DNA of 64,000 nt from NCBI GenBank assembly GCA_964540475.1, contig CAZIMC010000001.1, forward strand, positions 9,873 to 73,872, read 5' to 3'. Position 1 is the stretch's first letter; every line of letters starts with the position of its first letter. Shown here piece after piece: positions 30,521 through 50,231 of the stretch. The position numbers were made by a program, and so were the translations under genes. The notes under the pieces are model-generated. The model was not told where the DNA came from. It made no database searches and worked only from the letters and a program-made list of their open reading frames with translations. This DNA comes from an uncultured Gammaproteobacteria bacterium. GTDB lineage: Bacteria; Patescibacteriota; Microgenomatia; UBA8517.

Positions 30521-32431
30521 TTAACCTTTAGCAAGAACTGGGCTTATTGAGGCCTTAACTTTTCTAATCTCACCAATCTTTTGACCAACTATCTTTTCAA
30601 AATCATCCCGGTCCAAGGTTTCTTTTTCTAATAGTGCATCTGCGACCTTGTCTATTATCTTTCTTGAGGTCCTAACTATTTTCGTAGCTTCTTTGTAGCA
30701 GGCATCTATTATTGACTTTACCTCATTATCAATTTTCTCTTGCATAGCTGGGGACACTTTTGCTCCTTCGTAAAACTCCATATTGCCAAAATCGCCAAAC
30801 CCGGTTTGCGCATCCCAGTTAACCGGCCCCAGTTTACTCATCCCAAAGTCAATAACCATGGCCTTCGAAAGCTTTGTGGCTTGCTCGATGTCACTTGACG
30901 CTCCTGACGTCATTTCATTGAAAACTACTTCTTCAGCGGCTCTTCCCCCAAGCATTGCAGTAATTTGCTGCAGGAAGCGCCCCTTAGTCTCATGAGTGCG
31001 GTCAGCCGCCGGAGGAATTAAGGTATGGCCCAAACTCATCCCCCTGGCAACAATCGATATTCTATGCACGGGGTCGGTTTTCGGTAAGACGTGTGCAACA
31101 ATTGCGTGCCCGGCTTCATGGTAGGCGGTAATTCTCCTATCCTCCTCTGTTTGAAGTTTTCTCTTGGCAGGGCCTAATTTAACCTTGGTTGCGGCTTCCT
31201 CAATATCCTCCATATTGATTTCCTTTTTGTTGCTTCTTGCAGCAAAGATCGCCGCCTCATTCAACATATTTTCAAGGTCTGCACCGGAAAAGCCAACAGT
31301 ACGATCAGCAACTCTGCTCCACGCAATACCTTTGGTAAACTTTTTACCTTGTGCATGAATCTTTAGTATTGCCTCCCTGCCTTCTTTATCAGGCATATCT
31401 AAAGTTATCCGTCTATCAAACCGTCCCGGTCTTAAAAGTGCAGGGTCAAGAAGATCTCCCCTATTGGTAGCGGCAACAACTATAACATTGTCATTAGGAG
31501 TAAAACCATCCATTTCTACAAGAATTTGATTCAATGTCTGTTCGCGTTCGTCATGCCCACCAACTAACCCCTTTCCTCGCTGCCTTCCTATGGCGTCGAT
31601 TTCATCAATAAAGATGATAGAAGGTGCAGACGCCTTCGCGGTTGCAAACAAATCTCTAACCCTCGAGGCTCCCACACCTACCAACATTTCCATAAATTCC
31701 GAGCCTGCCATCGAGAAAAATGGAACGCCAGCCTCACCTGCCACCGCCCTGGCCAAAAGCGTCTTTCCGACACCTGCTGGTCCAAAAAGCAAAACACCCT
31801 TAGGAGTTCTTGCCCCAATACTTCTATATTTCGCGGGGTTTTTTAGAAAATCAACAACCTCTTCTAGCTCTTGCTTTGCTTCGGTTACCCCTGCAACATC
31901 CTTGAAGGTCACTGACTGTTTACCTTTAGCGAAAAGTTTCGCCTTGCTTCTTCCGAAAGAAAATATGTCTTGTGCCCCCCTGCTTTGCGCCCTGATTATA
32001 AAAAAGAAGAAAAGAGCCATAAGCCCCAAAGGAAGAACAATTCCCAAAACTTCTCCAAACGCCCTTGTCATACTTTGGTCTGCAACGGAGTAATTAACAG
32101 TTGTTGGATCAATTCCAGCAGACTCCAAAAGTTCCGCAAAGCTTTGGTTTGGTTCTTTAATTGTATATCTCTCCACGCCGTCCAGATAAGTTAATATAAC
32201 CCTCCCATCCTGGATTACTATTTCGTCAACTCTCCCTTCACGAACATCCGTTAAGGCGGTCGAAAGCTGAATGCGGTCTTCATCCGGTTGAAGTTGCAAA
32301 GCAGAAAAGAGCATAGGGAGCATAAAGACCACCACCAATACGCCCAATAATACTGTCCAGAGGTTTAGTTTAACTTTAACACCGAATTTTCTTTTTCCGT
32401 TTTTTGATTGGTTATTGTTTTTCCCTCTCAT
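30521..32431 (-). CDS. ftsH: ATP-dependent zinc metalloprotease FtsH
   Basis: TM anchor, AAA Walker A GPAGVGKT, SRH, and HEAGHA zinc motif. Confidence 0.9.
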   Translation of the reverse strand: MRGKNNNQSKNGKRKFGVKVKLNLWTVLLGVLVVVFMLPMLFSALQLQPDEDRIQLSTALTDVREGRVDEIVIQDGRVILTYLDGVERYTIKEPNQSFAELLESAGIDPTTVNYSVADQSMTRAFGEVLGIVLPLGLMALFFFFIIRAQSRGAQDIFSFGRSKAKLFAKGKQSVTFKDVAGVTEAKQELEEVVDFLKNPAKYRSIGARTPKGVLLFGPAGVGKTLLARAVAGEAGVPFFSMAGSEFMEMLVGVGASRVRDLFATAKASAPSIIFIDEIDAIGRQRGKGLVGGHDEREQTLNQILVEMDGFTPNDNVIVVAATNRGDLLDPALLRPGRFDRRITLDMPDKEGREAILKIHAQGKKFTKGIAWSRVADRTVGFSGADLENMLNEAAIFAARSNKKEINMEDIEEAATKVKLGPAKRKLQTEEDRRITAYHEAGHAIVAHVLPKTDPVHRISIVARGMSLGHTLIPPAADRTHETKGRFLQQITAMLGGRAAEEVVFNEMTSGASSDIEQATKLSKAMVIDFGMSKLGPVNWDAQTGFGDFGNMEFYEGAKVSPAMQEKIDNEVKSIIDACYKEATKIVRTSRKIIDKVADALLEKETLDRDDFEKIVGQKIGEIRKVKASISPVLAKG

Positions 32432-33871: not shown

Positions 33872-33943
33872 GGCTACGTAGCTCAGTGGTAGAGCAAAGA
33901 TTTCATAAGTCTGAGGTCACTGGTTCGAATCCAGTCGTAGCCA
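33872..33943 (+). tRNA. tRNA-Met, elongator type (anticodon CAU)
   Basis: GGCTACGTAGCTCAGTGGTAGAGC...TTCATAA...GGTTCGAATCCAGTCGTAGCCA. The acceptor and D arms are nearly identical to E. coli elongator tRNA-Met. Confidence 0.75.
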
Positions 33944-33989: not shown

Positions 33990-34059
33990 TGCGGGGTAGT
34001 GTACGGCTGCACGGAAGGCTCATAATCTTCCAGACCGGGTTCAACTCCCGGCCCCGCAA
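33990..34059 (+). tRNA. tRNA-Met, initiator-like (anticodon CAU)
   Basis: TGCGGGG...GGCTCATAATC...GGTTCAACTCCCGGCCCCGCAA. A weak 1-72 pair (U-A) and a CCCCGCAA 3' end resemble initiator tRNA. The alternative call is tRNA-Ile2 (LAU). Confidence 0.55.
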
Positions 34060-34476: not shown

Positions 34477-34556
34477 AAGAAGTATTTTTAGATTGACTAA
34501 AGGGCCCCTTGTGTTATTATATAGGTCTTAGCCCGCATAAACTGCTCTTCCATATT

Positions 34557-35417
34557 ATGACACAAACATTTAAAGACCTGCTTCCGAGGTTTTTGGAAAG
34601 CTTAAAAGAAAAAGGCCGCTCACTTTCAACAGTTCTAGCCTATCGTGCTGATTTAGAACAGCTGGGGGCGTTTCTACAGGCAAGGAATAAGGTTCTTACA
34701 CCGCAGGTAACAACCCAAGATCTGGAAAGTTTCCGGGACAGCTTACTTACAGAAAAATATACCCCAAAATCAGTCTCACGGAAATTGAATGCCATAAAGA
34801 CCTTTTTCAGATGGCTTATAACGGAAAATGAAATCACCTCAGATCCTTCGGCACTTGTTGCACACCCTAAAATCGAAAATTCAGCACCAAAATTTCTCTC
34901 CCAACTTGAATATAGAGCCTTAAGAGATATTGTGCGAGACGATCCTCGCATTGCAGCGATTGTTGAGCTTATTCTCCAGACGGGCCTGCGAATTTCAGAA
35001 GTCGCAAGTTTAAAACTTGAAAATCTGGAAGATGGCTCACTCAAAGTTGAAGGCTACGCAACCCAACCTGAAAGAACCATTCCGCTTAACGCCCGAGCCC
35101 GCGAAGCGCTAAATAACTATATATCAAAACGGCCATCAGTTGATTCTCCCTATATTTTTGTAAGTAAAACCGGGAAACCCTTAGCAGTTAGAAACATAAG
35201 AGCAGCAGTTGACAGATACATGCAACGCTCAGAAATAGGGAAATTCTCAGTTAACGATTTAAGAACTACATTTATTATTGAGAATATCAAAGGCGGAGCT
35301 GACCTAATCCTTCTTTCTCAGGTCGTGGGGCACAAAAGACTCTCAACAACCGAGAAATACCTCGACCTGGCAGGGGTAAAAGAACCCGGCAAAAAACAAA
35401 ACCTACTGGAACTGTAA
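34557..35417 (+). CDS. tyrosine recombinase, XerC/XerD family
   Basis: Catalytic region with LRISEV (Arg I) and VGHKRLSTTEKYLDL (His-x-x-Arg ... Tyr). About 287 aa from MTQTF. Confidence 0.75.
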   Translation: MTQTFKDLLPRFLESLKEKGRSLSTVLAYRADLEQLGAFLQARNKVLTPQVTTQDLESFRDSLLTEKYTPKSVSRKLNAIKTFFRWLITENEITSDPSALVAHPKIENSAPKFLSQLEYRALRDIVRDDPRIAAIVELILQTGLRISEVASLKLENLEDGSLKVEGYATQPERTIPLNARAREALNNYISKRPSVDSPYIFVSKTGKPLAVRNIRAAVDRYMQRSEIGKFSVNDLRTTFIIENIKGGADLILLSQVVGHKRLSTTEKYLDLAGVKEPGKKQNLLEL

Positions 35418-38849: not shown

Positions 38850-38925
38850 GGGTCGGTAGCTCAACGGTTAGAGCACCAAGCTTATACCTTGGCGGTTGAG
38901 GGTTCGAATCCTTCCCGACCCACCA
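38850..38925 (+). tRNA. tRNA-Ile (anticodon UAU), with encoded CCA
   Basis: GGGTCGGTAGCTCAACGGTTAGAGCACCAAGCTTATACCTTGGCGGTTGAGGGTTCGAATCCTTCCCGACCCACCA. It has a perfect CCAAG/CTTGG anticodon stem, loop CTTATAC, and U33 immediately 5' of the TAT anticodon. Confidence 0.7.
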
Positions 38926-39024: not shown

Positions 39025-41358
39025 TTAAAGTTTCGCACGCCTGGTGATTTCCGCTTCCACCAGCCGGACATCCCGTCCGTATTTAAGCCTACTCATCTCT
39101 TTGATTATTTCGGCAACTCGCACATTTTCCGAGGCTTTTTGTTGGGCAATATCTTTGGTTAAGTCAAGAGAAAAGGGAGGCACTGGTTCATTCTTAACAA
39201 TCGTTTTGATGTAGGCGTTATATTTGTCAACATTAAGGAGGTCGTCTTCACCAAAAACAGGCGTAAATTCATGCGCCAAATAATTTGCATCCGTTACTCC
39301 AATTCTGAACGAGATGATCGTTCCCACATTTCCAAATATCGCGTTTTTAACTTCTTCTTCAACTTGCCCTATAAACTGGTTAGCAACACATAGCCCTAAG
39401 CGGTACTTTCTAGCCTCAGATAAAATTACAGCAAAGTCGGGTGTTGCAAAGTTTTGAAACTCGTCAACATACAAATAAAAATCCCGTCTCTGCTCTTGCG
39501 GTACATCCCCCCGGCTCATTGCAGCCATTAAGATTCTAGGAACAATTATAAGCCCTAAGAAATTGCTGTTTTCCTCCCCAAGCGAGCCTTTTGCCAGGTT
39601 TATCAGTAATATTTTGCCTTCATCCATAACCCGTCTTAAGTCAAAAGAGCTTTGGGACTGGCCAATAATGTTTCTTATAAGTTTGTTGGTAACAAACCTG
39701 CCAAACTTTGAGGTAATGTAATCTAAAACTTCAGATTTATGAAAGTCGGAAGTTTGTGCGATTTGGTCTGTCCAGTAGCGTCTAACAATTGGATCTGTAA
39801 CTTTAGGCAAAAGCTCCTGCACATAGCGAGCATCGGTTAAAATTCTCATAACTTCGATAAATGTTGTGCCTGTTTCGGCCATTGCGGTAAGCATGGCGTT
39901 TCGAACCGCATGTTCGAAACGCGGACCCACAATACCCGTTTTGTAAGGATCGAAAAGCTTGTACATCATATTGATAACGGCTGTTGAGACAAAATGCTGT
40001 TGGTCCTCAGAGTTTGCCTCTAGTAGATTAAGGCCCATAGGGCGCTCCGTATCGGCTGGATTAAAGTAAATAATATCCTCTGCACGCTCCGGAGGGACAA
40101 GTTTTAAAATATCCTCAATTGCGTCTCCATGGGGGTCCATGAAACACAAGCCTTTACCTTCTTTGATATCCTGAATGATCATGTCCTTAAGAAGCTCTGA
40201 TTTTCCAGTGCCTGTTTTTCCAATGATATAGACATGGCGCATGCGGTCTTCATTACCCACATATACAGGCCGCTTTACACCCCTATAAGAACTAAGTCCC
40301 AGAAAAAGGCCTTCAGTTGGAATTTCTGATGGAGCCGGGGCTGTTTTTGAATATACCCAGTATATATGGGGGGTTGTTACCTGTTTATTGGGGAAATGGA
40401 AAAGTGTTGCCAATTCTTCCGTATTTAGAATTGAAGGACGGTTACCAAACAAATTAAACATCGGTTGATACCGGTATAGAAAGTCCTCCATAAAGCTACC
40501 CTTATTCCAAATTTTTCGCCCCTTAAAATAATTATATTCGGATGCAAACTGGGAAAGACTTGTCCCGATGTTGTCAAGGTGAACCTTTGCAGTCTCTTTC
40601 TGTGGGGAAACACAAACAATACGCACCGAAACCTCAAACCCTGCCTTGCTAATTTTGCTTTCCACGGCTTCAAGAGTCTTTGCGGGAACTGAAAACTTGG
40701 CCTTTTCCGGATCACTTTCTTGCTTTTTGGTATCTGAAATATATCCTGAGCCAGTTTTTTGCCATGGTATATCAGTTGGTGAAACAACTATCTGAAGGCT
40801 AGCAGCCTCTCCTTCCCCCATCTTGGCCATAGCTGAGGTAATAGCTGCCAACGGATCTACTGCAAAGTCTTTAAAAACCTTAATTGGGTAGTGATTCTCC
40901 TTGGCCAATTGAAACGACTTATAGGCAACTGAGCCATTCTCGCTAAAGATGTTGTATTCAGGTACTTCAATTATTTCTGCGTCAGGATAAGCGCCGTGGA
41001 TTTGTTTTTCCATCATATCTCGCAGACTCTTGGGAAGCCACACATAAAACCTTATGTCTTCTTTTCTGGCAACTACCTCAAAAGAGACAGTTGGCTGAGT
41101 TGAAAACTTTTGCTTCCAACCCCCTTTTTTTATTGAAGCCAAAGAAGCAAATAACTGCTCCATAACATCTATTTTTGCCTCGTTTTTGGTTACACCAACT
41201 TGAAGAAGGACAGAATCAATTGAGCGGTTTTCCCGGTCTCTAAATTTGAAAAATACAAAGAGCACGTATCCCAAAATTACAAGGCTGAACACTAAAAACG
41301 TAAAAAGCAAAAGCACTAAAATAAGAGCAGCTATGTTTATTTCATTTACCGGTACCAT
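39025..41358 (-). CDS. VirD4/TrwB/TraD-like type IV coupling-protein-family ATPase (membrane anchored)
   Basis: N-terminal TM helices, Walker A GKTGTGKS (compare TrwB GATGTGKS), and Walker B LYVDEFQNF. 777 aa. Confidence 0.5.
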   Translation of the reverse strand: MVPVNEINIAALILVLLLFTFLVFSLVILGYVLFVFFKFRDRENRSIDSVLLQVGVTKNEAKIDVMEQLFASLASIKKGGWKQKFSTQPTVSFEVVARKEDIRFYVWLPKSLRDMMEKQIHGAYPDAEIIEVPEYNIFSENGSVAYKSFQLAKENHYPIKVFKDFAVDPLAAITSAMAKMGEGEAASLQIVVSPTDIPWQKTGSGYISDTKKQESDPEKAKFSVPAKTLEAVESKISKAGFEVSVRIVCVSPQKETAKVHLDNIGTSLSQFASEYNYFKGRKIWNKGSFMEDFLYRYQPMFNLFGNRPSILNTEELATLFHFPNKQVTTPHIYWVYSKTAPAPSEIPTEGLFLGLSSYRGVKRPVYVGNEDRMRHVYIIGKTGTGKSELLKDMIIQDIKEGKGLCFMDPHGDAIEDILKLVPPERAEDIIYFNPADTERPMGLNLLEANSEDQQHFVSTAVINMMYKLFDPYKTGIVGPRFEHAVRNAMLTAMAETGTTFIEVMRILTDARYVQELLPKVTDPIVRRYWTDQIAQTSDFHKSEVLDYITSKFGRFVTNKLIRNIIGQSQSSFDLRRVMDEGKILLINLAKGSLGEENSNFLGLIIVPRILMAAMSRGDVPQEQRRDFYLYVDEFQNFATPDFAVILSEARKYRLGLCVANQFIGQVEEEVKNAIFGNVGTIISFRIGVTDANYLAHEFTPVFGEDDLLNVDKYNAYIKTIVKNEPVPPFSLDLTKDIAQQKASENVRVAEIIKEMSRLKYGRDVRLVEAEITRRAKL

Positions 41359-41695
41359 GTTGTCCTCCTGTAATTATTTGCCATCCGAAGTGAAATGCTT
41401 TCTTGATCATTCTTAAAAAACTGGCCGCCCACCACGTTTTGGAATCGTCGGTAGAACCTCTGGCTAGTTTTTCTAAAGCCTCCGGAGCTTGTGGAATTTG
41501 AATAGTTACGGCTTGGGTCTGGGGGGTTTGTATCAAGGGGTTTCCCTGATCATCGTTAACCTGAGCTTTAAATTGAGTCGGTGTGGGGGTTACACCAGGC
41601 ACTGACTTATTTTCAACAGATGCAGGAATCTCCGAAATTTCTTCCGGCCTCACTTCAACAGGTAAACCCTCTTTCTGCTCTGGGGAAACAGGCAT
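41342..41695 (-). CDS. hypothetical protein overlapping the start of the coupling-protein gene
   Basis: 117 aa with a Pro/Gln-rich N-terminus and a hydrophobic C-terminus. A 17-nt overlap suggests co-translation. Confidence 0.3.
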   Translation of the reverse strand: MPVSPEQKEGLPVEVRPEEISEIPASVENKSVPGVTPTPTQFKAQVNDDQGNPLIQTPQTQAVTIQIPQAPEALEKLARGSTDDSKTWWAASFLRMIKKAFHFGWQIITGGQHGTGK

Positions 41696-41786
41696 AGTAG
41701 AATCATTTTAGCACAGCACAAGGAGTCTTTTTAGTATCTGTGTGTGGCTGAACACGCCATGCGCCTGACGCATTAAATACATAAGG

Positions 41787-42323
41787 CTATTTCCTCCTCC
41801 AAACTTTTTCAGGAGTTTCACTTTCTTGATTAACTTTTCGTGCCAGCATAAACATATAATCAGAAAGTCTATTTATATACTTCATTATTTCAGGGTTCAC
41901 AGGCTCTAATTCGTTTAGTGTAACAAGTGCCCTTTCCCCCCTTCTAACTAAAGTTCTGGCATAATGAATTAAACTTCCAATTTCAGTGCCCCCCATCAAT
42001 ATAAAGTTAGCCAAAACCGGCAACGACCCTTCCATCTTATCAATTTCTTTTTCAAGACCGGTGGTTTTCGAAGCAGGAAAAGGTAGTTTTGCACCCGCCA
42101 GAATTGAATTAATAGTAAAAATGTTTAGCTGAAGCTCTTCAATTTTTTTACTTAAATCCCCTTCGGTTTTTGAAGAAATCACGCCAAAAAAAGCATTCAA
42201 CTCGTCTAAATTCCCGATTGCATTAATTCTCGCCGAATCTTTACTAACTCTTATATTCTGTGCATTGGCAGGATCATACAAAGAAGTCTCCCCTTTATCC
42301 CCTCTTTTTGTGTAAATAGCCAT
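41787..42323 (-). CDS. PduO-type ATP:cob(I)alamin adenosyltransferase
   Basis: IYTKRGDKGETSL N-terminal motif and a length of about 178 aa. Confidence 0.75.
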   Translation of the reverse strand: MAIYTKRGDKGETSLYDPANAQNIRVSKDSARINAIGNLDELNAFFGVISSKTEGDLSKKIEELQLNIFTINSILAGAKLPFPASKTTGLEKEIDKMEGSLPVLANFILMGGTEIGSLIHYARTLVRRGERALVTLNELEPVNPEIMKYINRLSDYMFMLARKVNQESETPEKVWRRK

Positions 42324-43003
42324 TAGTTAGGAATATAAACCCTGCCGCTTTTCTTCCACCTTTTGTAGGCCTTGATTGCAAGTAACGCCGGAGTGTGAAA
42401 ATTTTTCTGTGGTGGTAGTTCATTCAAATCAAACCACTCCCAACCTTCACATTTTTCTGGTTCTTTTAACTTTGGTTCTTTGCTAGCTCCCAGAACAACA
42501 AAATCAAAATTAATATAGCTTCTTTCTTTTTGAGAATCTGTAAAGGTAGACAAGGAAATAAGATTAAAACTTTTTCTGGAAATTCTAAAGCCTGTTTCTT
42601 CTCGAAGCTCTCTTACCGCTGCTTCTAAAATCCCCTCACTTTCACCTAAGTTTACATGTCCTGCGGGAACAGCATATAAACCTGCTTGATAGCCACCTTT
42701 TCTTTTACCGAGTAATATTTGCCCTTTGGTGTTAACTACAGTAATACCCACCCCAACTCGCATTTTCTCTTCTTCTAAAGGACCGACATATTCAAACCGC
42801 GGTAAACTTTTGCTGTCTATTTGGATTGTTTCAGTAAACATTTCCAAAGGTCTTACCCAAAATTTTGATGTAGGATTATCGTAAAGTGCTTCGTAAGCAA
42901 CATACTCCTCTAAAGTTTCACTGTGTCTAGCAACACCAATGGCTCTATAGTTTTTCCCGCTTTTTGAGTGCTTATATTTGCCAGGTTTTACTTCAATGGT
43001 CAT
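42323..43003 (-). CDS. DUF1653 domain fused to a NUDIX hydrolase
   Basis: GKYKHSKSGKNYRAIGVARHSETLEEYVAYEALYDNPTSKFWVRPLEMF (DUF1653), then the Nudix box GHVNLGESEGILEAAVRELREETGF. Start taken at MTIEV. The longer ORF, up to 43180, is probably not real. Confidence 0.6.
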   Translation of the reverse strand: MTIEVKPGKYKHSKSGKNYRAIGVARHSETLEEYVAYEALYDNPTSKFWVRPLEMFTETIQIDSKSLPRFEYVGPLEEEKMRVGVGITVVNTKGQILLGKRKGGYQAGLYAVPAGHVNLGESEGILEAAVRELREETGFRISRKSFNLISLSTFTDSQKERSYINFDFVVLGASKEPKLKEPEKCEGWEWFDLNELPPQKNFHTPALLAIKAYKRWKKSGRVYIPN

Positions 43004-43193
43004 ATAAAGTGTTATAAAGCAAACGTTATAAAACTGCAAGGATACACATTTATATACAATGCAACCTTGACTTGCTTGAGAGATTGAGTGATTATGGATA
43101 TAATGCTCAATCACATTCCGAATCGACTTCAAAAAGAGATTCAAAAGTACTTTAAAATATCCTGACCTTTGTGAGGCCAACTAGTAGTTTTTG

Positions 43194-43284
43194 TGCCCCT
43201 GGATGGATTCGAACCATCAACAGAGACGCTTCGCGGCGTTAGGGTTCACAAAACCCCTGCTTTATCCATTTAAGCTACAGGGGC
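43194..43284 (-). tRNA. atypical 91-nt tRNA with a long extra arm; the cloverleaf parse gives anticodon UGU (Thr)
   Basis: Minus strand: GCCCCTG-TA-GCTT-AAATGGATA-AAGC-A-GGGGT-TTTGTGA-ACCCT-[AACGCCGCGAAGCGTCTCTGTT]-GATGG-TTCGAAT-CCATC-CAGGGGC-A. The acceptor, D, anticodon and T arms are canonical, but a 22-nt variable region is inconsistent with Thr. Confidence 0.45.
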
Positions 43285-43332
43285 TAGTTGACCTCGCGAA
43301 AGTCAGGATAACTTTTGCAAGATTCCTACCTA

Positions 43333-43360
43333 CAAAAAACCACCCTTCGGTGGTTTATAT
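43333..43360. terminator. bidirectional intrinsic terminator downstream of nrdJ
   Basis: AAAAAA-CCACC-CTTC-GGTGG-TTTATATTT. The hairpin is flanked by an A-tract on one side and a T-tract on the other. Confidence 0.45.
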
Positions 43361-43431
43361 TTAAATACTTCTCGCTCCACCCAATGTAATACTCTTTCCA
43401 ATTCTTTGTAAACTAAATCCTTAATTGAAAA

Positions 43432-45942
43432 CTAACACTCACTATGCCCGCAGGCGTAACATTTACTGCAACCTTCTTCGTAAACAAACGCGTTTGCTCC
43501 GCAGGAAGGACAAATATCAGCTGATTTATCGGACAAGTTGATCTCTTCTCCTGCGGGGGTTAATTCGGCTGCACTTAAATGTGAGTGACCGTTGGTTAGA
43601 TGTACACCGTTAGTTACGGCCGCCTCAGGCGGAGCCGAAGCCGTTGTGGGGTCAATGCTAACCTTTGCAGGTTCCGGCGTACCCGAGGGCACGACAGAGG
43701 CAGCCGCCATAACAGCTCCAGCCCCGTTTGAGGGGGTCGCAACACCAAAATGAGATGTCAAAGCCAGGGCAACAGCATCCGGAAGTGAACGAACTTTGTT
43801 CGGACCAAATCCCACCGAACTTCTCCCTCCGATTCCCCTTAATTGATCGATTATTATTGTTGCTTTATCACGAGCAGTTGAAGCTCCATTAACTTTTAGG
43901 AATTTGGAAATTAACCTGCCTAAAGCCTCAGCCATTGCAGCAATATCACTTCCAGCCCTTCCGATATTAATAAATACTTCAATGGGGTTACCGTCCTGGT
44001 CCTGATTAACAGTTATGAATGCAGTACCCACAGGTGTTTGAATTTTATAAGTGGACCCCGAAAGCATAACCGGTCTTTCCCAGGCTTTCTTAACTTCAGC
44101 AGGAGTTGGAGCTTCTGCTGGCTTTTCATCCGCTTTTGAAAGCACACCCTGCCTACTTCCATCCCTAAAGTATGTTACCCCTTTACAGCCAAGTTCATAT
44201 GCCAAGTTATAAAGCTTTTTAACATCCTCAACCGTGTGTGCGTTTGGAGCGTTAACAGTTTTACTGATTGAAGCATCAACATACTTTTGAACTGCCGCCT
44301 GGACGCGAATGTGTTCTTCCGGTGTAAGCTGAGAGGCCGAAACAAAATAATCGGGCGGGGTTTTATCTGGATTATCCGACAGCCATTCCTGGTATAAGGG
44401 GTGGTGAACAATATGCTCCCCTGTTCTGTCGTTCCTTTTATATGTAAATTCATAAACCGGCTCAATTCCCGAACTTACACCCGCAAGCAGGGATATAGTA
44501 CCGGTCGGCGCTTGAGTAAGAAGTATTCCATTTCTTATCCCCTGTTTTGCTATTTTTGTTTTAATTGTCTCAGGGAGTCCTTGAATGAATTTGCCCTTTA
44601 AGTACTTTTCTTTGTCAAATTTAGGGAAAGCACCTTTTTCTTTTGCCAAGTCGCTTGAAGTTTCGTATGCCGTATCGCGGATTGTCTTATAAATTTTTTC
44701 AATCACTCTCAAAGACTCCTCGCTCCCGTAGCGAATACCCATTTTAATTAAGGTATCGGCAAGACCCAGGGTGCCTAGGCCGGTTCGTCTTATACCATTT
44801 TTCTGTACATCTTCATTGTTTTTAGAGAAGTAGTAATTAGCATCAATTACGTTATCCAAGAAACGGGTCGCTACTGCTACGTGTCTTTTAAGGTCCTCAT
44901 AATCCATTTTTCCGTTTTTTACAAACGGTGAGAGATTAACATGACCTAAATTGCAAACCCCCCAAGCCCCCAAGCCTTGCTCCCCGCACGGATTGGTTGC
45001 AATAATTTTCTCAAAATACCACGAGTTACTTTGGTCATTATAGCGATCAATAAATACTGCTCCAGGTTCGGCCGAGCGCCATGCTGCCTCGGCAATGAGG
45101 TCCCAAAGGTATCGGGCCCTTAATTTTTTATAAACCTTAATCGGCAAACTCTTCTCTTTCCACTTCGTTATGTCGCCATCCCATTCTTCATCATAATTTT
45201 CATAGTCTATATCCGGAAAATAAAGTTCCCACTCGGCATCTTCTTTTACTGCTTTCATAAAGGCATCACTCACACAAACCGAAAGATTTGCCCCCGGAAT
45301 CTTGCTTAGGTCCTGCTTAACGGTAATAAACTCCTCCACATCAGGATGCCAGTCATCAAGCATAAGCATTAATGCACCTCTTCTACTTCCCCCCTGTTGA
45401 ATCACATCATGATTTGCAGTTGAATAAAGCGCGGCCCAGTTAACAGGTCCTGAGGATGTACCATTCACCTTTCGCACTCTTGCCCCCCTTGGCCTTAATG
45501 AGGAAAGATTAAGGCCCACTCCGCCGCCTCTTGCTTGAATTTCAACTGTCAGTGAAACATTGTCCATTATTCCCTGTCTTGAGTCGCGTGGGGAAGGAAT
45601 AACGTAGCAGTTGTAGTAAGTTACTTCATATCCTGTTCCTGCCCCGGAAAGAATTCTTCCTGCAGGAACAAACTTAAAGTCGGCCATGGCATCATAAAAC
45701 TTTTCTTCCCATTCTTTCTTGGCATCCGAGGCTTCCTCAATCTGCGCTATTCCCCAAGCTACCCTTCTCCACATTTGTTCGGGGTAAGTTTCCATGCTGG
45801 AGCCATCTATGTCTTTAAGTGAGTATCTGTCCAAAAATACATCTTTTCTGATCCCTTCCAGGAGAGTTCCCTCGTTCATTGGAACGTAGTGTGGTTTGGG
45901 TAAACTCTTGACTTGTTTTTTCTTTGCTACTTGTGTTTGCAT
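43432..45942 (-). CDS. nrdJ: adenosylcobalamin-dependent (class II) ribonucleotide reductase
   Basis: 836 aa with a ten-stranded barrel active site (NPCGEQ). The C-terminal zinc ribbon CPSCG...CSKCYACGH is typical of the monomeric NrdJ tail. Confidence 0.85.
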   Translation of the reverse strand: MQTQVAKKKQVKSLPKPHYVPMNEGTLLEGIRKDVFLDRYSLKDIDGSSMETYPEQMWRRVAWGIAQIEEASDAKKEWEEKFYDAMADFKFVPAGRILSGAGTGYEVTYYNCYVIPSPRDSRQGIMDNVSLTVEIQARGGGVGLNLSSLRPRGARVRKVNGTSSGPVNWAALYSTANHDVIQQGGSRRGALMLMLDDWHPDVEEFITVKQDLSKIPGANLSVCVSDAFMKAVKEDAEWELYFPDIDYENYDEEWDGDITKWKEKSLPIKVYKKLRARYLWDLIAEAAWRSAEPGAVFIDRYNDQSNSWYFEKIIATNPCGEQGLGAWGVCNLGHVNLSPFVKNGKMDYEDLKRHVAVATRFLDNVIDANYYFSKNNEDVQKNGIRRTGLGTLGLADTLIKMGIRYGSEESLRVIEKIYKTIRDTAYETSSDLAKEKGAFPKFDKEKYLKGKFIQGLPETIKTKIAKQGIRNGILLTQAPTGTISLLAGVSSGIEPVYEFTYKRNDRTGEHIVHHPLYQEWLSDNPDKTPPDYFVSASQLTPEEHIRVQAAVQKYVDASISKTVNAPNAHTVEDVKKLYNLAYELGCKGVTYFRDGSRQGVLSKADEKPAEAPTPAEVKKAWERPVMLSGSTYKIQTPVGTAFITVNQDQDGNPIEVFINIGRAGSDIAAMAEALGRLISKFLKVNGASTARDKATIIIDQLRGIGGRSSVGFGPNKVRSLPDAVALALTSHFGVATPSNGAGAVMAAASVVPSGTPEPAKVSIDPTTASAPPEAAVTNGVHLTNGHSHLSAAELTPAGEEINLSDKSADICPSCGANAFVYEEGCSKCYACGHSEC

Positions 45943-46389
45943 TTACGATATTTTTTCTAAGAGTTTTTCAAACTCGGATATGTCCGTCACTTCAAAATAA
46001 ACGCTGGCAAATCTTAGCCAGGCAACTTTATCAATTTTTTTGAGCCGCTTTAACACTGCTTTTCCAATCGTTCTTGATGAAACTTCACCGGCCTCATGCC
46101 TTAGCATCTCCTTCTCAGTTTCATCTACCAGCTCATCAACCAAATCTAAAGAAACCGGACGCTTTTCAATACTTCTTAAGACTCCGCGCTTTAATTTTTC
46201 TCTATCAAAAGGTTCTCTTTTCCCGTCTTTTTTGATAACCCAAAGCGAAAAGTTTCTCACCCTCTCAAAAGTTGTAAATCTCTTCCCGCAAACCCCACAA
46301 CTTCTTCTTCTCCTTATTGCCACCCCTTCTTCTACGGTCCTGCTCTCCAAGACTTCACTCTGCCCTGAGCCGCAAAAAGGACACTTCAT
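45943..46389 (-). CDS. nrdR: transcriptional repressor NrdR
   Basis: N-terminal zinc ribbon MKCPFCG...CGVCGKRFTTFE followed by an ATP-cone. Abuts nrdJ. Confidence 0.9.
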   Translation of the reverse strand: MKCPFCGSGQSEVLESRTVEEGVAIRRRRSCGVCGKRFTTFERVRNFSLWVIKKDGKREPFDREKLKRGVLRSIEKRPVSLDLVDELVDETEKEMLRHEAGEVSSRTIGKAVLKRLKKIDKVAWLRFASVYFEVTDISEFEKLLEKIS

Positions 46390-47378: not shown

Positions 47379-47945
47379 TTAAAGCGTTTTATCTTTGCCT
47401 AGTCTGCATTCCTCAAAGGCCAAATCTATTGCGGAAATTATTAGACTAATTTTCTCTTTGGCTTCGGAAAAATTTATTGCATTTTTCTCATCAGGGAACC
47501 AGTGAAACACCAGGTTTCTGGAAGTTTTCCATGTCTCCCAAAGGTTTTCGGCAAGCTTCTCTCCCCCGCAATAATCTACCAGTTTTTTATAAACACTCTC
47601 CCTCTCTAAATCTTTTGGCAAATAAGGGCTTAATGATTTACCGATTCTTAAGTGTTTTCCATAATACTGCTCACGGTTAATAAAACCCAAATCCAAAAAA
47701 ATCTTCTTTAAAAATCCCTCATAAGCTTTTGCTGCAGGAAAAACAATAAATGAATAGTCCTCAAACTCCTCCTTGGATATTTCCTCGTTTCTTTTTTCGA
47801 AAATGTCTACTAGAACTAGTGACTCAGTAAATAATTCTTGCAGGTCTGCCTCCAGATATCTCCACCAGGCCTTATCTTTTAAATTAACATCCATAGCTTG
47901 TAAAATACTCTTCATAAGGATAGCTTTATATGGATATTGGGTCAA
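47379..47945 (-). CDS. hypothetical protein, possible HEPN-like domain
   Basis: All-helical 188-aa protein with a C-terminal R-x4-H motif (RNLVFH). Confidence 0.3.
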   Translation of the reverse strand: MTQYPYKAILMKSILQAMDVNLKDKAWWRYLEADLQELFTESLVLVDIFEKRNEEISKEEFEDYSFIVFPAAKAYEGFLKKIFLDLGFINREQYYGKHLRIGKSLSPYLPKDLERESVYKKLVDYCGGEKLAENLWETWKTSRNLVFHWFPDEKNAINFSEAKEKISLIISAIDLAFEECRLGKDKTL

Positions 47946-47981: not shown

Positions 47982-50231
47982 ATGAAAAAAGGTCCAGGTA
48001 GTAAAGCGTCTATCAAAAAGGCTGTAAAACCAGTTAATTTACCTCCGACTCTTTTAAAAAAGCTAAGAAGCAAAAGAGCCATATTCTCATTGGTGTTACT
48101 ATTATCAACCGCCGGAATTGGGATATGGCTTTTTTGGGGCTTACCGCTTCCAACAAAATTAGCCTCCAATCAATTCCCTGTCTCAACTAAGTTATATGAT
48201 CGCAGCGGAGAATTAATCTACGAAATCTACGCAGATAGAAGAAATTCCCCTGTTTCACTGGATGAGCTGCCAGAGCATATTAAACAAGCAACAATCGCAA
48301 TTGAGGACAAGGATTTTTATAAACACCGCGGTTTTTCGCTGACTGGAATCGCCAGGGCGGCATATAACACTGTTTTTAAGAGCAAGCTTCAGGGAGGCTC
48401 GACTTTAAGCCAGCAACTCGTAAAAAATACACTCCTGTCACCTGAAAGAACAATAAGGCGAAAGGCACGCGAGGTCCTGCTCACAATAATAGTCGAAAGT
48501 ATATACTCAAAAGATAAGATTTTAGAGCTTTATTTAAACCAAATTCCTTATGGTTCAACTGCATATGGTATCGAGGCTGCTAGTGAGCTTTATTTCGGTA
48601 AACCCGCCAGGGACCTAAACCTTTCCGAGGCGACACTTCTTGCAGGTTTGCCTCAAGCTCCCTCGAGATACTCACCATTTGGGGCAAACCCGGACTTTGC
48701 CAAAAATCGACAGGCTACAGTACTAGCAAGGATGGTTGAGGACGGCTATATCACCGAGGAGGAGGCCGAGGAGGCCAAAAAGACGGAATTGACATACGCA
48801 ACAAATACCCCCCCGAAAGCTCCGCACTTTGCCCTTTGGATTAAGGAACAACTGGCAGAAAAATATGGCGAAGCGGTGGTTGAACGAGGCGGTTTAAGAG
48901 TAACCACAACGCTGGATTTGGATTTGCAGGAGTTTGCACAAGCCCAAGTGGCTACTGAAGTAGGAAAACTTGCACGGCAAAACGTTAAAAACGGTGCAGT
49001 TTTGGTAACTAGACCCAAGACCGGCGAGATCTTGGCAATGGTAGGTTCGAAAGATTATTTTGCCGAGGACGAAGATGGCAAGGTAAATATTATCTTAAGG
49101 GAACGCCAGCCTGGCTCCTCTATTAAACCGCTCAATTACGCACTGGCTATAAGAGATGGAAAGATCACACCTGCCACAGTATTGGCAGACGTGCCTACAT
49201 GCTTCTCAACCGCCGGTCAGCCGCTTTATTGTCCGGGAAATTATGATGGATCTTTCCACGGTGCAACACAAACCCGTTTTGCACTAGGCAATTCGTACAA
49301 TATTCCAGCAGTAAGAGTTTTAGCTCTAAACGGAATTGAAAATTTTATAAATTTTGTTACTGAGCTGGGAATAACTACTTTTAAAGACCCCAGAAATTAT
49401 GGGCTATCACTCACTTTGGGCGGTGGAGAAGTTAGGCCGTATGACATGGCAACAGCATTCGGGGTGTTAGCTAACGAAGGTGTCAAGCAACCATTAATAT
49501 CAATACTTAAAGTAGAAGACTACACTGGACGAATACTTGAAGAGGTTGATACAAAGGAATTAGAGGGAGACAGAATTCTCTCTCCAAATGTGACATTTTT
49601 AGTTTCGCACATGTTGCACGATAACAACGCACGAATTGCCGCATTCGGTGAGAGATCTTTTTTGAATGTAGCTGGCCACCCTGAAGTGTCGGTCAAAACG
49701 GGTACGACAAATGACAGGCGCGACAACTGGACCATTGGATACACAAATCAAATACTTGTGGTTACTTGGGTTGGCAACAACGACAACTCTCCTATGAGTG
49801 GAGCAGTCTCAGGTGTTTCTGGGGCATCACCAATATGGAATGCTGTAATAAGATTTGCGTTAGATAAAGCAGAAGACGGTTTCTACAGCTCGGATGAGGT
49901 CGCCCATGCTTGGCCGAGGCAGCCAGATGGTGTAATTGGAAGAAATATTTGCGCCAACTCAGGTCTTCTCCCTGGAACAGAAGGCGAAACGCCTAATTGT
50001 CCAACCAGATTCGAGTACTTTATACAAGGTGCACTACCAAACAAAATTCACGGTGAAACAGCGGACATTCAAATTAACAAGTTGACAGGTGCTGTTGCTG
50101 GCGGCAATGCCCCACCAGAGGAAATTGAAACCCAAAATAAAACTGTAGTATACGATCCACTGGGTACGGTATATTGTTTAGATTGTGCAATCCCAAAAGA
50201 CACAATCGTTGTTCGCTATCCTTTGCGCTAG
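47982..50231 (+). CDS. class A penicillin-binding protein (PBP1A, transglycosylase and transpeptidase)
   Basis: TM anchor, glycosyltransferase motifs EDKDFYKHRGF and GGSTLSQQL, and transpeptidase motifs SSIKP (SxxK), SYN and KTGTTN. Confidence 0.85.
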   Translation: MKKGPGSKASIKKAVKPVNLPPTLLKKLRSKRAIFSLVLLLSTAGIGIWLFWGLPLPTKLASNQFPVSTKLYDRSGELIYEIYADRRNSPVSLDELPEHIKQATIAIEDKDFYKHRGFSLTGIARAAYNTVFKSKLQGGSTLSQQLVKNTLLSPERTIRRKAREVLLTIIVESIYSKDKILELYLNQIPYGSTAYGIEAASELYFGKPARDLNLSEATLLAGLPQAPSRYSPFGANPDFAKNRQATVLARMVEDGYITEEEAEEAKKTELTYATNTPPKAPHFALWIKEQLAEKYGEAVVERGGLRVTTTLDLDLQEFAQAQVATEVGKLARQNVKNGAVLVTRPKTGEILAMVGSKDYFAEDEDGKVNIILRERQPGSSIKPLNYALAIRDGKITPATVLADVPTCFSTAGQPLYCPGNYDGSFHGATQTRFALGNSYNIPAVRVLALNGIENFINFVTELGITTFKDPRNYGLSLTLGGGEVRPYDMATAFGVLANEGVKQPLISILKVEDYTGRILEEVDTKELEGDRILSPNVTFLVSHMLHDNNARIAAFGERSFLNVAGHPEVSVKTGTTNDRRDNWTIGYTNQILVVTWVGNNDNSPMSGAVSGVSGASPIWNAVIRFALDKAEDGFYSSDEVAHAWPRQPDGVIGRNICANSGLLPGTEGETPNCPTRFEYFIQGALPNKIHGETADIQINKLTGAVAGGNAPPEEIETQNKTVVYDPLGTVYCLDCAIPKDTIVVRYPLR

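Follow-up and report, generated by a model that had tools for sequence, protein, structure and literature searches.

A tRNA-Thr(UGU)-type gene with an extra arm, G37, and a flanking inverted repeat in a Patescibacteria (CPR) chromosome

By the textbook rule, long variable arms are confined to tRNAs for Leu, Ser, Tyr, and Sec, which raises the question of what a tRNA gene with an extra arm and a Thr-type UGU anticodon could be. Such a gene lies on the minus strand at positions 43194–43284 of the window, the whole 64-kb stretch of DNA that was analyzed. An earlier note, made from the sequence alone, had listed four possibilities: a tRNA-Thr with an unusual insertion, an intron-like element in the variable region, a tRNA-like decoy or pseudogene, and a misparse hiding a different identity. 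On balance, we consider it probable that the gene is a derived tRNA-Thr(UGU) copy in an inverted-repeat cassette, which has gained an extra hairpin and an A37G change but is still foldable, chargeable by ThrRS, and able to read ACA as Thr.

The 91-nt tRNA gene is real. ARAGORN called a tRNA-Thr(tgt) at 43193–43284 on the minus strand, and the Rfam tRNA model RF00005 matched 43194–43284 over the full model (positions 1–71) with 60.4 bits (gathering score 29; E = 1.4e-10), placing an 18-nt insert state in the variable region. This insert notwithstanding, the score was at the level of the other tRNAs in the window. Read along the minus strand, the 5' part of the RNA is GCCCCUG UA GCUU AAAUGGAUA AAGC A GGGGU UUUGUGA ACCCU, and the 3' part that follows is AACGCCGCGAAGCGUCUCUGUU GAUGG UUCGAAU CCAUC CAGGGGC A. 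The acceptor stem (GCCCCUG/CAGGGGC), D arm (GCUU-AAAUGGAUA-AAGC), anticodon arm (GGGGU-UUUGUGA-ACCCU), and T arm (GAUGG-UUCGAAU-CCAUC) are well formed, as had been described earlier, and 21 of 21 stem pairs are made, one of them being G27-U43. Bases involved in tertiary structure were likewise present, namely U8, A14, A15/U48, G18G19, A21, U33, and GUUCGAAUC spanning G53-C61. Broken stems or lost conserved bases, the marks of a pseudogene, were not seen in the gene. The body is of class I: its D stem has 4 bp and its D loop 9 nt, A15 faces the terminal U48, and the acceptor/T architecture is 7/5. The gene ends at A73 with no encoded CCA, which is missing from five of the six tRNA genes in the window, this one included.

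We consider it extremely unlikely that the gene is a misparse or of another isotype, whether a type II tRNA read in another register, a tRNA-Sec, or a remolded tRNA-Arg that is still charged with Arg. ARAGORN returned no other parse in four modes, including the intron mode that the earlier note had proposed as a check, and when all 4227 Rfam families were scanned permissively, RF00005 alone matched at E ≤ 0.01; only the canonical UGU parse emerged. The 7/5 architecture together with UGU excludes Sec and allo-tRNA types. The Arg variant draws on the tRNA body, whose nearest neighbors include tRNA-Arg. The D loop AAAUGGAUA (43263–43271, minus strand) contains GGAUA, giving A20, an Arg identity element that is typical of tRNA-Arg. 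The acceptor, D, and T arms scored slightly better against tRNA-Arg than against tRNA-Thr genes, and the body without its anticodon arm resembles tRNA-Arg about as well as tRNA-Thr genes. However, ArgRS requires C35, an established identity rule, whereas the gene has G35. It could be a remolded paralogue, for which the Arg-like body is suggestive but not decisive.

The variable region, AACGCCGCGAAGCGUCUCUGUU, is 22 nt long (43219–43240, minus strand). When the cloverleaf was enforced, its sole fold was the ACGC/GCGU hairpin already pointed out for this 22-nt segment (4 bp with a 6-nt loop, CGCGAA; −3.8 kcal/mol alone), beyond which a 3' tail of 7 nt stays unpaired. The outer bases, A44 and G46-U47-U48, are class I-like, and A15 in the D loop is consistent with U48 closing the region. 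The hairpin is contained in a GC-rich, 17-nt segment, ACGCCGCGAAGCGUCUC (43223–43239, minus strand). Removing this segment yields a 74-mer with the variable loop AUGUU, which shares 77% identity with class I tRNA-Thr(UGU) genes having the variable loop AGGUU; the same insert-less body is 66–72% identical to the phage long-arm family described below. As the deletion leaves AUGUU and a class I-like body, the segment was assigned to the 45/46 position as an insertion. The natural extra arms of Leu, Ser, and Tyr tRNAs also emerge between positions 45 and 46, where they are solvent-exposed. Of the four original possibilities, a tRNA-Thr with an unusual insertion is favored by the class I body and its identity of about 77% to ordinary tRNA-Thr(UGU). 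No second copy of the insert was found in the 64-kb window at up to 3 mismatches, and a DNA pattern combining the insert with the T arm had 0 matches.

Because deletion restores a class I loop, the 17-nt segment might instead be removed after transcription in the manner of an intron, leaving a normal 74-nt tRNA-Thr; CPR bacteria are known for insertions in their rRNA genes. This reading is highly unlikely. The insert sits in the variable region and not in the anticodon loop, and the bulge-helix-bulge geometry (3-nt bulges flanking a 4-bp helix) was not found around it. Group I introns are also much larger than this insert, which had no Rfam intron match and is unrepeated in the window, leaving the intron-like element suggested earlier without support. 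We know of no bacterial enzyme or mechanism that splices a variable loop, and G37 would remain in the product.

The anticodon loop UUUGUGA (43246–43252, minus strand; assigned from the RF00005 alignment) has seven nucleotides with U33, the anticodon UGU at 43248–43250 with the Thr bases G35 and U36, and a G at position 37 (43247). The earlier description of the tRNA had overlooked this G37, as well as the 27-nt flanking inverted repeat and the absence of a strong −10 box that are discussed below. ANN-reading tRNAs carry t6A37 (PMC6004061, PMC3561968). The t6A site of a tRNA-Thr, A37, is missing from this gene, and among the 112 tRNA(UGU) genes of the fetched loci it alone has G37, the other 111 having A37. 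G37 is rare but not unprecedented: in viral contigs, it is shared by four class I tRNA-Thr(UGU) genes that are normal in length and have the loop YUUGUGA (L203 3586–3660, L204 1935–2007, L205 7803–7875, and L206 1493–1565). Since the near-universal t6A37 site of ANN-reading tRNAs is removed, G37 counts against a functional reading.

Elements of the ThrRS type are present, namely G1-C72, C2-G71, G35, and U36. G1-C72 and C2-G71 are the acceptor pairs of bacterial ThrRS, while C2-G71 is also a SerRS antideterminant, the Ser elements being G73 and G2-C71 (PMC9976931). These bear on the possibility of a mischarging or recoding tRNA, in which the arm would recruit SerRS (or LeuRS via A73) and ACA would be translated partly as Ser or Leu. 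A long variable region joined to a non-Leu/Ser/Tyr anticodon invites such a reading, and A73 is the Leu discriminator. Yet the gene has A73 and C2-G71 in place of the Ser-like G73 and G2-C71, so charging with Ser is disfavored; neither the D arm nor the core is Leu-like, both being of class I style, and the extra arm has only 4 bp with a 7-nt tail. Codon data also weigh against it. In 38 ORFs of the window, ACA outnumbered every other Thr codon, with 383 occurrences among 948 (24.3 per 1000), so that substantial mischarging would be very costly. Across 80 NrdJ homologues, the mean aligned Thr fraction at the 14 ACA codons of NrdJ was 0.32, compared to 0.33 at ACC and 0.24 at ACG. Ser (0.08) and Leu (0.07) at the ACA sites were at roughly the same level as at other Thr codons (Ser 0.04–0.09, Leu 0.02–0.04). 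As the commonest Thr codon, and one that aligns with Thr rather than Ser or Leu in homologues, ACA is not recoded, and mischarging is very improbable. These counts and alignments indicate that the genetic code is unaltered, with ACA as Thr, and that the organism needs a Thr-charged UGU tRNA.

Annotation with Pfam gave the minus-strand order NrdR, NrdJ, tRNA, DUF1653-NUDIX fusion, PduO-type cobalamin adenosyltransferase, and VirD4-like ATPase. The upstream neighbor of the tRNA gene is nrdJ, encoding a B12-dependent ribonucleotide reductase (43432–45942, minus strand), and the downstream neighbor is the DUF1653-NUDIX fusion gene (42323–43003, minus strand). An intrinsic terminator of nrdJ, AAACCACC-GAAG-GGUGGUUU with a U tract, was identified at 43334–43356 (minus strand; arms 43337–43344 and 43349–43356), and the Thr(UGU) gene lies ~50 nt past its hairpin; the placement between these two genes and after a terminator had been reported correctly. 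The DUF1653-NUDIX gene probably starts at ATG 43003, giving the 226 aa of the source record (a 100% identical protein), which makes this start more plausible than the previously used TTG at 43180. The alternative 285-aa ORF from that TTG overlaps the trailer arm of the flanking repeat (43004–43180 segment, minus strand). The closest other homologue of the DUF1653-NUDIX protein was 54% identical.

Penicillin-binding proteins, DivIC, and a XerC/D-like recombinase (34509–35417) mark the window as chromosomal, and the relatives of NrdJ were Patescibacteria (CPR) genomes, with a best identity of 61%. A phage origin of the window was rejected, as megablast against a phage collection returned nothing and the context is that of a CPR chromosome. 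Many relatives share a conserved block of a penicillin-binding protein, NrdR, NrdJ, adenosyltransferase, VirD4-like protein, tRNA-Ile(UAU), and XerC/D. The order from the penicillin-binding protein to the VirD4-like gene (39025–46389 on the minus strand and 47982–50231 on the plus strand of the window) is conserved across many Patescibacteria, and the VirD4-like "coupling protein", 70–79% identical between genomes, looks like a core protein and not like part of a conjugative element. The tRNA-Ile(UAU) gene (38850–38925, plus strand) adjoins the VirD4-like gene, a position conserved in the Woesebacteria-like loci L049, L050, L056, and L072; a UAU anticodon is uncommon for tRNA-Ile in bacteria. 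A 188-aa ORF at 47379–47945 (minus strand), 4 kb from the Thr(UGU) gene, showed sub-cut-off Pfam matches to RNase LS and RnlA-type HEPN toxin domains. Synteny with L140, L180, and L197 was considered and rejected, since it rested on one homologue, 48% identical to a 636-aa protein of the window (30521–32431).

In the relatives, the adenosyltransferase gene directly follows nrdJ, with a small DUF1653 gene between the two in L004 and NUDIX genes in L207. No tRNA stood beside nrdJ in the loci of 58 relatives, in L207, or in L208, so the homologous gene that the earlier note had wished to compare was not found at this site. TRNA-free synteny was observed in L001, L004, L207, and more than 10 Woesebacteria-like loci. 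As the syntenic site in the relatives has no tRNA, the gene is a derived insertion in this lineage, and no orthologue of it was found in the loci and collections searched. Integration at a tRNA gene, which would supply a new 3' half, was considered and rejected: with as many as 3 mismatches allowed, the 22 nt at the tRNA 3' end had no att-like repeat, nor was an orphan T arm found. The recombinase nearest to the gene is 8 kb away, within the conserved block.

The view that the gene is in a position to be expressed became doubtful, because it has no TATAAT-type box, unlike the other five tRNAs of the window. Its sole −10-like hexamer is TATCCT (43305–43310), located at −26 at the outer end of the leader arm. 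The other five tRNAs (721–792, 903–975, 33872–33943, 33990–34059, and 38850–38922) have TATAAT or TAAAAT starting 23–28 nt upstream of the mature 5' end, with an extended TGn in four of the five and weak −35 boxes. The −10 match is thus 4 of 6 positions versus 5–6 of 6, in a group of bacteria whose promoters are poorly known. The −10 boxes of the five tRNAs offer a usable promoter template for this organism.

A weakened promoter is one of the features expected if the gene were a non-functional, decaying extra copy, that is, a duplicated or transferred tRNA-Thr in which A37G and the 17-nt insertion are damage. The lineage-specific position within conserved synteny and the near-absence of G37 from other tRNA(UGU) genes fit this explanation as well. 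In other contigs, tRNA-Thr(UGU) was found within Thr-Tyr-Gly clusters, so a canonical copy may be elsewhere in the genome. Decay is nonetheless difficult to reconcile with intact stem pairs and conserved tertiary bases, an Rfam score equal to that of the other window tRNAs, an insertion exactly at the one site tolerant of extra arms, and a well-preserved 27-bp flanking repeat; CPR genomes also usually keep one gene per anticodon. The pseudogene or decoy proposed earlier therefore gained from the non-syntenic position and weak −10 box and lost from the intact stems and bases, and we regard decay as a serious, though unlikely, explanation.

The flanks of the gene form an inverted repeat of 27 nt that is 85% complementary. 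The leader arm, UAUCCUGACUUUCGCGAGGUCAACUA (43285–43310, minus strand), ends at position −1, with G1 (43284) serving as the 27th position of the leader-side repeat, and the trailer arm, CUAGUUGGCCUCACAAAGGUCAGGAUA (43158–43184, minus strand), starts 9 nt after A73. The predicted duplex of the arms had an energy of −36.4 kcal/mol, compared to −12.4 ± 3.2 kcal/mol for shuffled flanks (0 of 3000 as good; z = −7.5). It ranked 4th among 575 tRNAs, the higher scorers being irregular GC-rich cases, and comparable flanks were absent from the other five tRNAs in the window. The whole cassette spans ~153 bp (43158–43310), with TA at both outer ends. A leader paired up to position −1 should hinder RNase P. 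Alone, the trailer arm can form a weak terminator-like hairpin (43180–43162; −6.9 kcal/mol) followed by a U-rich tract.

Two matches between flanks and tRNA were noticed post hoc. The loop of the trailer hairpin, UCACAAA, is the exact complement of the entire anticodon loop, including G37, and the leader loop has UUCGCG, which is complementary to the extra-arm loop CGCGAA. A complement of the tRNA's own anticodon loop was present in the flanks of 6 of 430 tRNAs. When compared by local alignment with shuffles, the loop matches were not significant (p 0.1–0.9), and contacts between the flank loops and the tRNA loops are suggestive only. The idea that the repeat arms, the insert, and the anticodon arm derive from one ancestral sequence was also considered and rejected, as local alignments were no better than shuffles.

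With its terminal inverted repeats, which are a feature of MITEs, the locus might not mainly encode a translational tRNA but a tRNA-like core within a small element, either mobile (a MITE-like cassette with 25–27-bp terminal inverted repeats and TA ends) or structured (an RNA whose flank hairpins pair with the loops of the tRNA). Such an element could act as a decoy or spare that resists toxins directed at tRNAs. The exact bracketing of the gene, the TA ends, the length, the lineage-specific insertion, and the two loop complements are in keeping with this, the anticodon-loop case being shared with few other tRNAs. Against it, the arm exists as a single copy, counted within the 64-kb window only, and no further copy occurred in 208 loci or, meaningfully, in the viral collection. 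The loop matches are post hoc and in the range of shuffles, no transposase is nearby, and the XerC/D-like recombinase is part of the conserved block. Overall, such an element is a rather improbable explanation. Six viral matches to the repeat-arm pattern were dismissed as one chance event because they fell in a single conserved phage coding sequence. A more elaborate version, in which a 153-bp mobile tRNA cassette with loops matched by its flank hairpins serves as a self-pairing precursor or as a toxin-resistant spare tRNA moving between CPR genomes, is distinctly improbable; it would amount to a bacterial MITE that carries a tRNA and its own control at the RNA level.

The reading that we favor, a derived tRNA-Thr(UGU) copy that is still usable, would involve the insertion of a GC-rich hairpin of 17–18 nt at the 45/46 position of a class I body. 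The L-shape is expected to survive, the extra arm being small and floppy. The inverted-repeat cassette would have landed between nrdJ and the DUF1653-NUDIX gene in this lineage only, and we lean toward the gene being an extra or relocated copy rather than the only tRNA-Thr(UGU) of the cell. RNA would be made at a low level, either driven by the TATCCT hexamer at −26 or through transcription that runs on from nrdJ, and its maturation may be aided by cleavage of the leader-trailer duplex. ThrRS would then charge the tRNA via G1-C72, C2-G71, G35, and U36, and ACA (and ACG) would be read as Thr without t6A37.

Should the RNA prove to be expressed and charged, it would show that one insertion can give a bacterial class I tRNA an extra arm and that such a tRNA can serve translation even after loss of the t6A37 site. 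This would bear on the origin of class II tRNAs and on the strictness of the constraints set by ThrRS, EF-Tu, and the ribosome. The lineage-specific location of the inverted-repeat cassette hints at how single tRNA genes may move. If the gene is a decaying copy, what is left is a minor annotation caveat. The gene is one of a kind, and this oddity may throw light on the movement and alteration of tRNA genes.

Counterparts in other genomes were sought by pattern searches. The exact anticodon-arm pattern had 0 matches in the viral collection, and a relaxed pattern matched 10 viral and 97 metagenome stretches, among which there was no homologue and no G37. The papers searched yielded no account of a long-arm tRNA-Thr, whether from CPR bacteria or from phages. 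The restriction of long arms to Leu, Ser, Tyr, and Sec, from which the earlier note had argued, stands as a textbook rule but is broken in phage arrays. There, 21 distinct long-arm tRNA(UGU) sequences with variable regions of 12–17 nt were identified on phage-like contigs (L096 4555–4642, L099 1998–2086, L103 247–335, L085 2470–2554, L088 1630–1718, and L091 3973–4061; also L100, with L096, and L113–L196 including L121–L153). Other isotypes with long arms (85–94 nt) were present in phage-like arrays: Pro in L121 (873–958), Asn, Cys, and Lys in L124, Cys and Lys in L093, Ile UAU (93–94 nt) in L097 and L167, and Asn and Arg in L178. The presence in these arrays of long-arm versions of tRNAs for Thr, Pro, Asn, Cys, Lys, Ile, and Arg suggests that mobile elements break the Leu/Ser/Tyr rule more often than textbooks allow.

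The stems of the phage long arms were mostly 3 bp (UCC/GGA, ACC/GGU, UGC/GCA, GGG/CCC, GAC/GUC, and AGG/CCU), as listed by inspection and single-sequence folds, since MAFFT/RNAalifold did not align the variable arms. Their tetraloops were often GNRA-like, and the genes had A37, U73, and often an encoded CCA. In the arrays, the long-arm tRNA(UGU) stands beside normal Thr(CGU) and Thr(GGU) genes. As the differing stems still pair and are kept beside normal Thr genes, a UGU tRNA can carry an extra arm in a way that is compatible with being maintained over the long term.

Two other kinds of sequence were observed in the same searches. A repeated element in L143 (855–905), L136 (5942–5991 and 8112–8161), and L159 (1156–1205 and 3326–3375), with copies ~2.1 kb apart, has a Thr-like anticodon hairpin, GGGUUUUGUAAACCC, and a T-arm-like 3' part; it has no cloverleaf upstream, and ARAGORN calls no tRNA. 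Some viral tRNA(UGU) genes, some of them from giant viruses, have 10–26-nt insertions after 37/38 that are like eukaryote- or archaea-type anticodon-loop introns (L081, L082, L083, L084/L094, L086/L090/L092, L087, and L089).

Among the systems compared, the long-arm tRNA(UGU) genes of huge-phage tRNA arrays are like the window gene in having UGU, G1-C72, C2-G71, and a hairpin in the variable region, and those recovered by the anticodon-arm scan also share its anticodon stem GGGU/ACCC. They are not homologous to it, however, having their own D arm of the UCGCAUAG..GGUCGAUUGCA type, U73, and A37. Their arm is a compact, conserved 3-bp stem with a 3–4-nt tail, whereas that of the window gene has 4 bp and a 7-nt tail. 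With ordinary tRNA-Thr(UGU), the gene shares the 7/5 cloverleaf, 4-bp D stem, G18G19, T loop UUCGAAU, G1-C72, and C2-G71. It differs in its variable region of 22 nt versus 5 nt, G37 versus A37, and A20, as well as in being isolated, flanked by the 27-nt inverted repeat, and preceded by a weak −10 box.

Class II tRNAs (Leu, Ser, bacterial Tyr, and Sec) have an extra hairpin between positions 45 and 46 as well, but the window gene combines it with a UGU anticodon, a class I core, and an arm of only 4 bp and lacks G73 and G2-C71. Its 7/5 architecture also sets it apart from Sec and allo-tRNA types, with their 8/5, 9/4, 8/4, or 9/3. Long arms with non-Leu/Ser anticodons have been described in nematode nev-tRNAs (PMC3333845) and in allo-tRNAs and selC-like tRNAs (PMC7609411), the allo-tRNAs being of 8/4 or 9/3 architecture (PMC7609411). 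Nev- and allo-tRNAs are true class II scaffolds that accept Leu or Ser and show conservation inside their clades (PMC3333845, PMC7609411). The window gene, in contrast, is a single instance on a class I scaffold with Thr elements and shows no sign of recoding.

The cassette around the gene has its own parallels. Correia-type MITEs have terminal inverted repeats of 26–27 bp, a length of 100–155 bp, and TA ends; the window cassette differs in being known from one copy of unrelated sequence, with a whole tRNA gene inside and an arm that ends at −1. In rRNA-style processing stems, a long RNA duplex is cut by RNase III, and by analogy the leader and trailer of the cassette would pair into one that this enzyme might cleave.
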